Shown here: positions 4,598 through 5,431 of the stretch, piece by piece
Position numbering within the stretch: position 1 is the first letter of the stretch
Layout: the number at the start of each line of letters is the position of its first letter
From: a virus
Lineage: Duplodnaviria; Heunggongvirae; Uroviricota; Caudoviricetes
DNA length: 7,549 nucleotides
Virus record (IMG/VR): IMGVR_UViG_2531839374_000013
Location: 1-7,549 of that record
Direction: 5' to 3' (one strand)
The notes under the pieces: generated by a model
The model's input: the letters and a program-made list of their open reading frames with translations, nothing else
The model's database searches: none
What the model was told of the DNA's origin: nothing
Made by a program: the position numbers and the translations under genes

Positions 4598-4744
4598 TGG
4601 AGCACCTGTGTTGTTCTGAGGTGAGCATATCACCTCTGTTCAGGTGGCCAAATTCAGTGTGCCACTTCAGCCCGAAAGGGCGGGGAGCAGTCACACATCT
4701 GTTTCCGATAGCCCCGTTCTAATGCTACACTCTTTGATATTTTT

Positions 4745-5431
4745 ATGACCCCAATAAACATATTTATGACAGTTGCTGATTTCAAACGGCCCAAATTGGA
4801 GCTCCCAAACGGGGCAAACAAACTACTACTGCACTCTTGCTGTGCTCCATGTTCCGGTGAGGTGATGGAGGCGCTTCAGGCCTCGGGAATCGACTACACC
4901 ATCTTTTTCTACAACCCGAACATTCATCCTCAGAAAGAGTATTTAATTCGTAAGGATGAGAATATTCGCTTTGCTGAACAACACGGCGTGCCGTTTATTG
5001 ATGCTGATTACGACACAGACAACTGGTTTGAACGAGCCAAAGGAATGGAATGGGAGCCCGAACGAGGGATCCGTTGCACCATGTGTTTTGACATGCGTTT
5101 TGAGCGGACAGCGCTGTACGCCGCTGAAAATGGTTTCAGTGTGATCAGCAGTTCACTGGGCATTTCACGCTGGAAAAATATGCAGCAGGTTAACGACTGT
5201 GGGCGGCGAGCCGTCGCGCATTATCCGGGCATGGTGTACTGGGATTATAACTGGCGCAAGCAGGGAGGCTCGTCCCGTATGATTGAAATCAGCAAGCGCG
5301 AAAAATTCTATCAGCAGGAATATTGTGGCTGTGTGTATTCTCTGCGCGATACCAATCTACACCGCAAATCTCAGGGACGCCCTCTTATCAAAATTGGTCA
5401 ACTCCACTACGGTAAAGAAGAGAAGGAGTGA
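4745..5431 (+). CDS. queH: QueH-like epoxyqueuosine reductase (DUF208 family), 228 aa
   Basis: Motifs [28 protein letters not shown] and YCGCVYS match the cysteine ligand pattern I recall for DUF208/QueH. No clear Shine-Dalgarno; an in-frame stop at 4709-4711 limits the start to 4745 or 4766. Confidence 0.7.

Follow-up and report, generated by a model that had tools for sequence, protein, structure and literature searches.

Introduction

Conversion of the oQ34 epoxide to Q34 on tRNA-Asp, tRNA-Asn, tRNA-His and tRNA-Tyr is carried out by QueH (DUF208, IPR003828, PF02677), which employs iron-sulfur chemistry and not cobalamin (PMC5372724, PMC9508795). QueG, a member of an unrelated family, acts on the same four tRNAs and likewise turns oQ34 into Q34 (PMC5372724, PMC4646009) but requires cobalamin (PMC4646009), and QueH has been described as the cobamide-independent alternative (PMC6461909). 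When bacteria are grown in a glucose-salts medium that lacks B12, their tRNA contains oQ and not Q (PMC6850298, citing Frey 1988). In S. aureus both QueG and QueH are present and differ in their expression (PMC13443448). The coexistence in one genome of a B12-requiring and a B12-free enzyme for one reaction is also known for MetH and MetE and for the class II and class I/III ribonucleotide reductases (PMC6461909).

Genes of the queuosine pathway are likewise found in phages, in the 7-deazaguanine sets (FolE, QueD, QueE and QueC with DpdA) which make preQ0 derivatives for DNA. Homologues of QueA, QueG and QueH were absent from the viruses analysed by Hutinet and colleagues in 2019, a set of 7-deazaguanine phages (PMC6884629).

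The locus described here is a queH gene in a stretch of 7,549 nucleotides (hereafter the window) from a Caudoviricetes record of IMG/VR (IMGVR_UViG_2531839374_000013, positions 1 to 7,549). Its product shares, by prediction, the fold of the QueH of T. maritima, which is represented in the PDB (7LC5, 7LC7 and 9DEU), with a full-length Pfam match and approximately 30% amino acid identity, but the gene is carried by a prophage alongside QueG and does not replace it. In contrast to the phage 7-deazaguanine sets, the window encodes a single late-pathway tRNA enzyme. Unlike the MetH/MetE-type pairs, the B12-independent partner in this case comes from a mobile element and is present in about a fifth of strains.

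Results

The first-pass annotation of the window, made from the letters alone, had read the interval 4670-5431 as a gene for a queH-like epoxyqueuosine reductase, for which a DUF208 profile search was proposed as a check and the lack of a DUF208 match as grounds for rejection. The predicted protein matched Pfam PF02677 (formerly DUF208) with an E-value of 1.9e-65 and a score of 220.6 bits (cut-off 23.5) over profile positions 1-174 of 175, and the assignment was therefore not rejected. A phmmer search of the PDB returned T. maritima QueH (7lc5, 7lc7 and 9deu) at E=5e-22. There was no match to the protein among the NCBIfam models, and the QueH name given in RefSeq evidently rests on Pfam or BLAST rules rather than on NCBIfam.

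A search of 1.84 billion cluster representatives identified 4754 relatives, 40 of which (35-86% identity) were aligned with the window protein. In the resulting alignment of 41 sequences C25, C26, C29, C104, C107, C187 and C189 were invariant, and the three cysteine motifs of the family, CCxxC/D towards the N-terminus, CxxC in the middle and CxC towards the C-terminus, are all retained in the window QueH. Li et al. (2021) reportedly identified the cysteines of these motifs as ligands of a [4Fe-4S] cluster and of a neighbouring iron. T. maritima departs from the family at one of these positions, having Asp13 (CCAPD) where the window protein has C29 (CCAPC) and where all 40 of the other aligned sequences also have cysteine; PDB entries for T. 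maritima QueH include the mutants C9S and D13N at these ligand positions. The window protein further differs from that of T. maritima by an N-terminal extension of approximately 18 amino acids and a basic C-terminal tail of approximately 25 amino acids.

An AF2 model of the window QueH was obtained with a pLDDT of 95.5 and a pTM of 0.91. The best Foldseek matches to this model were the five T. maritima QueH entries (target-normalised TM 0.92, rmsd 1.2-1.3 A over 179 columns; for 7lc5, TM 0.92 and rmsd 1.2 A), and the next-ranked folds were those of other adenine-nucleotide alpha-hydrolase-type tRNA enzymes, such as TtuA. The sequence, the ligand set and the predicted fold all uphold the identification of the gene product as an epoxyqueuosine reductase, and it is very probable that the protein is catalytically competent.

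The start of the gene had to be moved. Position 4670, where it had been placed, is the border of IS911, being the first base past the terminal repeat of the element (4660-4669, tgccacttca, is the reverse complement of TGAAGTGGCA); no start codon is present there, and an in-frame TAG at 4709-4711 lies between this position and the queH open reading frame, which ends with TGA at 5429-5431. The longest open reading frame with an ATG start covers 4745-5431 (228 amino acids). The ATG at 4745 is probably not the start of queH because it is not conserved among copies: it is ATT in one E. coli copy (L006) and is out of frame in a further copy (L009) and in one IMG/VR copy. The ATG at 4766 is invariant across copies, aligns with the N-termini of homologues and is the start assigned by PGAP in E. 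coli; on this comparison it is the conserved start of queH. A mini-ORF following the queH stop codon (5436-5456) was dropped, as it was not consistently conserved.

The coordinates of all features of the window are collected in Table 1.

Table 1. Features located in the 7,549-nucleotide window, with the evidence for each.
Feature	Position	Strand	Evidence or remark
Rac left arm	1..3041	-	96-97% identical to K-12 Rac; Pfam
intR	1-1272	-	Rac left arm
IS600 copy A	1247..2511	+	99.8% identical to PGAP-annotated IS600
xisR-like	2544-2744	-	Rac left arm
rcbA/DUF1187	2820-3041	-	Rac left arm; Pfam
RalA sRNA	2824-3002	+	Rfam, 207 bits
IS911	3421..4669	-	99.6% identical to copies named 'IS3-like element IS911 family transposase' by PGAP
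IS911 orfB	3429-4268	-	
IS911 orfA	4295-4633	-	
Retained native 5' region of queH, AU-rich leader without SD	4670..4765	+	megablast; upstream alignment
Weak -35-like TTCCGA	4703-4708	+	3/6 positions match
Extended -10 promoter-like TGcTACACT	4723..4731	+	43 nt 5' of ATG 4766; cross-copy conservation
In-frame upstream ATG and 7 codons (MTPINIF)	4745..4765	+	longest-ORF start; non-conserved
queH CDS, 221 aa and TGA stop	4766..5431	+	PF02677; fold; invariant Cys set
Promoter-like site	5453-5482		just 5' of hok/sok; promoter scan
hok/sok type I toxin-antitoxin locus	5489..5828	+	Rfam; Pfam
hok mRNA leader with sok region	5489-5678	+	Rfam RF01794, 110.5 bits (gathering score 59)
mok ORF	5616-5828	+	overlaps hok
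hok	5673-5828	+	Pfam HOK_GEF, E=4e-23; PGAP homologue name hokD
nin-like segment of prophage	6078..7197	+	Pfam; PHROG; synteny
rem-like ORF	6078-6365	+	Rem family on identical gene in L010-L017
DUF1367 (NinB-like)	6404-7003	+	Pfam; PHROG 319 NinB
ybcO/DUF1364, truncated by IS600	from 7003	+	Pfam YbcO
IS600 copy B, ends with window	7198..7549	+	shares direct repeats of 300 nt and 37 nt (100%) with copy A

By megablast, the homology to intact prophages upstream of queH starts exactly at 4670 in the nearest relatives, whereas for the majority of the others it starts at 4695. The native upstream region had been put at 75 bp, which is exact for 4670-4744, and it amounts to 96 bp when counted to the conserved start. 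Within it the element TGcTACACT (4723-4731), always 43 nt before the ATG, did not vary among the 80 copies from IMG/VR or among any of those examined from E. coli and E. albertii, and TGCTACACT at -43 was unchanged among prophage copies. The sequence TACACT or TACAAT was also found 33-46 nt 5' of the start of chromosomal queH genes in Scandinavium, Kluyvera, two Enterobacter and three Erwinia, and 25 nt 5' of the start in Pantoea dispersa; TG precedes it in four of these chromosomal orthologues, and the neighbours of the genes concerned were non-phage in the genomes checked.

A generic sigma-70 promoter scan called no promoter 5' of queH, as the -35 is poor, and the promoter proposal therefore rests on the cross-species conservation of the extended -10. 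On balance this conserved motif appears to be the gene's own promoter, in which case transcription would start near 4736-4740. No terminator was found 3' of queH in a terminator scan. Screening against Rfam at E<=0.1 gave RalA and sok as the only matches in the window, and near queH neither a preQ1 riboswitch nor a member of any further RNA family.

The best duplex of the queH leader with the anti-SD was calculated at +0.7 kcal/mol, compared to -5.5 to -7.1 kcal/mol in five neighbouring genes, in agreement with the first-pass annotation, which had seen no obvious Shine-Dalgarno sequence. Since the chromosomal queH genes of Erwinia and Providencia likewise have SD-less leaders, the absence of an SD is, by this comparison, ancestral and a trait of the gene, not damage, and queH would be translated without one. 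The short upstream region and the missing SD are thus no signs of damage, given that the promoter-like element is retained and that the leader resembles those of chromosomal orthologues. The end of IS911 lies 53 bp 5' of the extended -10, which is wholly contained in the retained 75 bp. It is the orfA-proximal end of IS911 that adjoins queH, and as the two are transcribed divergently, read-through from IS911 is not expected.

The left part of the window derives from a Rac prophage, bases 1-1247 and 2510-3028 being 96-97% identical to intR, xisR, rcbA and ralA of K-12 Rac. An insertion of IS600 (copy A) where intR meets xisR breaks this homology; copy B, in direct orientation to copy A, truncates ybcO. 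IS911 carries terminal TGAAGTGG repeats at 3421 and 4669 and no 3-bp target duplication was found at its ends, which are flanked by gaa and gcc. Where IS911 stands, intact relatives hold the recombination, immunity and replication modules; the element, occupying the place of these missing modules without a target duplication, therefore marks a deletion. In the genomes which share the IS911-queH junction, the element adjoins ttcA, dbpA and zntB, the Rac attachment site.

To the right of IS911, positions 4670-7112 are collinear with intact prophages (E. coli FDAARGOS_944 and others) at 98.3% identity. The order in intact prophages is queH, hokD, rem, DUF1367, DUF1364 (ybcO) and DUF1133 (Q-like), followed by tRNAs and lysis genes, and an order running from DUF977 through queH and hokD to DUF1367, DUF1364, DUF1133, tRNA and lysis genes was found in E. 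coli FDAARGOS_944, in APEC O1, in phage HannyBb and in genomes as large as those of Shigella. APEC O1 has a fuller Rac-type prophage in which recE, kilR, sieB, ydaT, ydaV, DUF977, queH and hok are followed further on by lysis genes and trkG. In K-12 Rac all that normally lies between ydaW and rzpR has been lost, and K-12 for this reason has no queH. The slot immediately 3' of queH varies among prophages, being occupied by hokD, a KwaB-like Kiwa gene, a Dcm and NgoMIV-type restriction-modification pair or a Doc toxin.

Both neighbours had been recognised correctly by the first-pass annotation, IS911 abutting queH on one side and hok/sok following on the other, but its description of queH as cargo carried between them does not stand, as queH-hok-rem-DUF1367-ybcO is the unaltered order of intact Rac-type prophages. 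The IS911-queH junction was absent from six of the eight genomes with an identical protein; it was found with an intact ORF in at least two other sequenced genomes, in a look-up by identical protein which finds intact copies only. A composite transposon or IS cargo was rejected on the lack of an IS911 target duplication, the absence of the junction from these six genomes and the prophage synteny on the right. It is very probable that queH is a native gene of a Rac-type lambdoid prophage, in which IS911 took the place only of the sequence on the left.

Of 5426 complete E. coli genomes, 995 (about 18%) carry queH at a threshold of at least 90% nucleotide identity. Both queH and hokD are present in 741 genomes. 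Every copy among the matches listed bears the PGAP name 'epoxyqueuosine reductase QueH', and the exact 221-amino acid protein occurs in 5483 blocks of a public assembly collection. In IMG/VR, 188 viral contigs encode queH, and the 221-amino acid ORF was intact in all 80 copies examined. As a gene call queH is thus already known: RefSeq gives the QueH name to the exact protein, and the gene is common in E. coli. That a tRNA-modification gene would be unexpected in a prophage remnant, as had been suggested, is overstated in view of these counts and of the PGAP name. The accompanying statement that the host lineage normally uses QueG was confirmed: queG, a chromosomal gene, was found in all 5426 E. 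coli genomes, including all 995 with queH, which is accessory. The occurrence of queH where queG is absent, a usual but non-defining trait of QueH, is accordingly not seen in E. coli.

A search of 50,697 deposited phage genomes identified one cultured phage with a close copy, the temperate Escherichia phage HannyBb, in which the gene is annotated as 'hypothetical protein'. The corresponding PHROGs family, phrog_3217, is the QueH family and is labelled 'unknown function', with the consequence that phage annotation pipelines call queH hypothetical, as in HannyBb. No paper on a prophage-borne QueH came up in a literature search that combined QueH or DUF208 with phage or prophage. In its phage-borne form this tRNA-modification enzyme seems to have been neither studied nor annotated in phage databases.

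When ten prophage copies of queH were compared in pairs, dN/dS was 0.02-0.07, with dS up to 0.47, a sign from sequence comparison of strong purifying selection on prophage copies in general, which is not a measure of the window copy in its decaying remnant. Intact prophages encode the very same QueH protein as the window, and the window gene differs from the closest of theirs by one synonymous nucleotide.

Chromosomal QueH proteins of Scandinavium, Kluyvera, Enterobacter, Erwinia, Providencia and Photorhabdus are 80-92% identical to the window protein and of equal length. In contrast to the lambdoid prophage of the window, their genes stand in surroundings without phage markers: beside tmcA in Providencia; in Erwinia with purL and an operon of a histidine kinase, a lipoprotein and a sigma-54 response regulator; and elsewhere beside dehydrogenase or DeoR-type genes. 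The closest non-phage relatives, at 89-92% identity, are those of Scandinavium, Kluyvera and Enterobacter. Members of the subfamily from alpha-, beta- and gamma-proteobacteria share 75-86% identity, and identity alone is only weakly informative as to the donor lineage, the matches at 89% or above (Scandinavium, Kluyvera and Enterobacter) being the only suggestive ones. Taken with the shared -10 element and SD-less leader, these likenesses suggest that queH was probably captured, together with its own promoter and leader, from a chromosome of the Enterobacteriaceae.

Discussion

With a probability of about 0.75, the queH of the window would be an intact and native moron gene, captured from a chromosome, which acts as a B12-free backup for QueG. 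The gene is an accessory gene ('moron') of Rac-type lambdoid prophages, with the replication module on one side and the hok/nin region on the other. In this Shigella-like window IS600 and IS911 have shredded the prophage, which occupies the ttcA site, but because IS911 stopped 53 bp short of the extended -10, queH and its proximal control region are left intact.

Alternatively, queH in this particular remnant may be an unexpressed leftover, intact as yet since the decay by IS elements is recent, with QueG doing the work. The state of the prophage speaks for this, with its two IS600 and one IS911, its truncated ybcO and its deleted immunity and replication modules, as does the severing of queH by IS911 from the early-right operon of the prophage, with divergent transcription at the new junction, and so do the lack of an SD and the universal presence of queG in E. 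coli. Against it are the identity of the protein to that of intact prophages, with a single synonymous difference from the closest copy, the retention of the conserved -10 element and leader and the strong constraint on the family in prophages generally. The recurrence of the IS911-queH junction with an intact ORF in at least two other genomes also argues against a silent gene, although the look-up by which these were found is biased to intact copies. We regard a silent passenger as unlikely.

It is less probable again, and decidedly so, that QueH serves mainly the phage and not the lysogen, as a lytic auxiliary transcribed from the early-right promoter which would maximise the Q-tRNA available to phage translation or have a different 7-deazaguanine as its substrate. 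Such a role would suit the position of queH in the early-right operon, where it is flanked by replication genes and nin genes of the same orientation, and its presence in the cultured temperate phage HannyBb. In other bacteria the outcome of phage-host encounters has been linked to queuosine status (bioRxiv 10.64898/2026.03.05.709803), and queG mutations are described in phage-exposed Vibrio (10.1101/2024.12.28.630609). The promoter-like element, however, resembles that of chromosomal orthologues and fits a constitutive, repressor-independent expression, and the lytic programme is gone from the window. Modification by QueH of tRNAs encoded by the prophages themselves was rejected, as none of these has a GUN anticodon; their anticodons (CAU, UCU, UGU and UCC) include no Q substrate. 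No tgt, dpdA or preQ0-pathway genes were present in the annotated prophage regions examined, and QueA, QueG and QueH were missing from the phage set of Hutinet and colleagues (PMC6884629). A place for QueH in an anti-phage or addiction module, with hok/sok or with a variable defence slot, is highly improbable. The contents of the downstream slot in other prophages (hokD, the Kiwa gene, the restriction-modification pair or Doc) would favour it, but queH is constant while this slot varies, and the two are therefore separate modules; in addition no PADLOC model matched QueH at E<=0.01, and the protein is 89-92% identical to chromosomal housekeeping QueH in non-phage contexts.

In the favoured reading, that of a B12-free backup, the prophage QueH would duplicate in its host the chromosomal, B12-dependent QueG and, expressed from its own promoter, would complete Q synthesis whatever the supply of B12. 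E. coli and Shigella are not known to synthesise B12 de novo. Because these hosts cannot make the cofactor themselves, QueH would be of value when cobalamin is unavailable; as queG is universal, QueH would be dispensable whenever B12 is available. The known enzyme pairs, and QueG with QueH in S. aureus, follow the same logic. That the sparing of B12 is the target of selection we put at slightly under even odds. The wider proposal is that a functional QueH of host type is present in temperate lambdoid phages infecting E. coli, E. albertii and Shigella as a lysogenic-conversion gene, which, expressed from its own promoter, makes Q maturation B12-independent; it is put forward tentatively, with the chances slightly under even.

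If this proposal is true, whether tRNA carries Q or oQ when B12 is limiting, as in minimal media, would be a strain-variable and phage-determined trait in about a fifth of E. coli, and the statement that the Q-specific enzymes QueA, QueG and QueH are absent from viruses would need to be revised. Provided that QueH is active, the oQ/Q state of E. coli and Shigella strains in B12-poor conditions would differ according to their prophage content. This would bear on work concerning Q-dependent translation and on experiments in K-12, the Rac prophage of which is without the queH segment.

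IS elements and module loss

The Rac prophage arm occupies positions 1-3041 of the window and is 96-97% identical to K-12 Rac; an IS600 insertion lies at its intR/xisR junction. The segment between rcbA/ralA and IS911 (3029-3420) was compared with K-12 Rac ralR and recT using blastn and gave no match to either, and its open reading frames had no Pfam match. The 3-bp target duplication was absent at the ends of IS911 (gaa vs gcc). Because IS911 is without this duplication, the recombination, immunity and replication modules were taken to have been removed by deletion adjacent to IS911 or by IS-IS recombination.

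The entire xisR-to-ybcO segment is flanked by two IS600 copies in direct orientation (1247-2511 and 7198-7549), the first 300 nt of which are 100% identical, and recombination between them could lead to loss of queH and hok. Other IS arrangements were seen at the same locus in five related genomes (L010 and L013-L016).

Features of the window and of related prophages
Feature	Position	Remarks
intR, xisR-like, rcbA/DUF1187	within window 1-3041	Rac arm genes
RalA antitoxin sRNA	window 2824-3002	Rfam, 207 bits
SD-like AAGGAG	within window 5423-5456	overlaps final queH codons
Sigma-70-like site TTGATT-18-TAGAAT	window 5453-5482	just 5' of hok mRNA 5' end
Tandem duplication of 'ggctatctgcttcag'	window 5499-5528	insertion relative to Rfam sok model
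Variable slot directly 3' of queH	L004 2396-3687; L005 2372-3687; L002 9340-10023; L007 2425-2580	other E. coli prophages
tRNA cluster, anticodons CAU, UCU, UGU, UCC	L001 9351-9661; L011 and L017 11255-11565	intact relatives

The queH 3' end and downstream slot

The 5' end of the hok mRNA was placed at 5489 by Rfam alignment. A mini-ORF of 6 codons (ATG at 5436, MGHLSD) begins 7 nt past the SD-like AAGGAG, and this arrangement is only partially conserved in other queH copies; it is probably due to chance.

Across other prophages of E. coli, different genes fill the slot 3' of queH: hokD, a KwaB-like (Kiwa) gene, a Doc-family toxin, or an NgoMIV-type endonuclease paired with a DNA cytosine methyltransferase. 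Genes for defence or addiction abound in this slot, and it appears to be a defence hotspot of prophages.

Conservation, annotation and loss of QueH

The QueH subfamily of the window is unusually highly conserved, with 74-86% amino acid identity across relatives (L025-L104) from Enterobacterales, Pseudomonas, Stenotrophomonas, Sphingomonas, Rhizobiales and Neisseriaceae. Among these relatives, a small number of records bear the title Bacillus subtilis or Avacidaminococcus; these look like contamination or mis-binning.

QueH, encoded at 4766-5431 of the window, is a gap in phage annotation, the name being already in use in Pfam and PGAP: in PHROGs v4 the family is phrog_3217, of 'unknown function', with a profile starting at residue 34, and in the cultured phage HannyBb (PP925841) queH (L003 6050-6736) is labelled a hypothetical protein.

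The tRNA cluster of the intact relatives lies downstream of a Q-like antiterminator gene, a region that the window stops short of, and none of its tRNAs is a queuosine substrate. The queH-hok-nin-tRNA-holin segment is kept in fuller Rac-type prophages such as that of APEC O1. In K-12 Rac, ydaW directly adjoins the rzpR pseudogene (L106 13753-14645), and the segment has therefore been lost, which is why K-12, the model strain, is without QueH.
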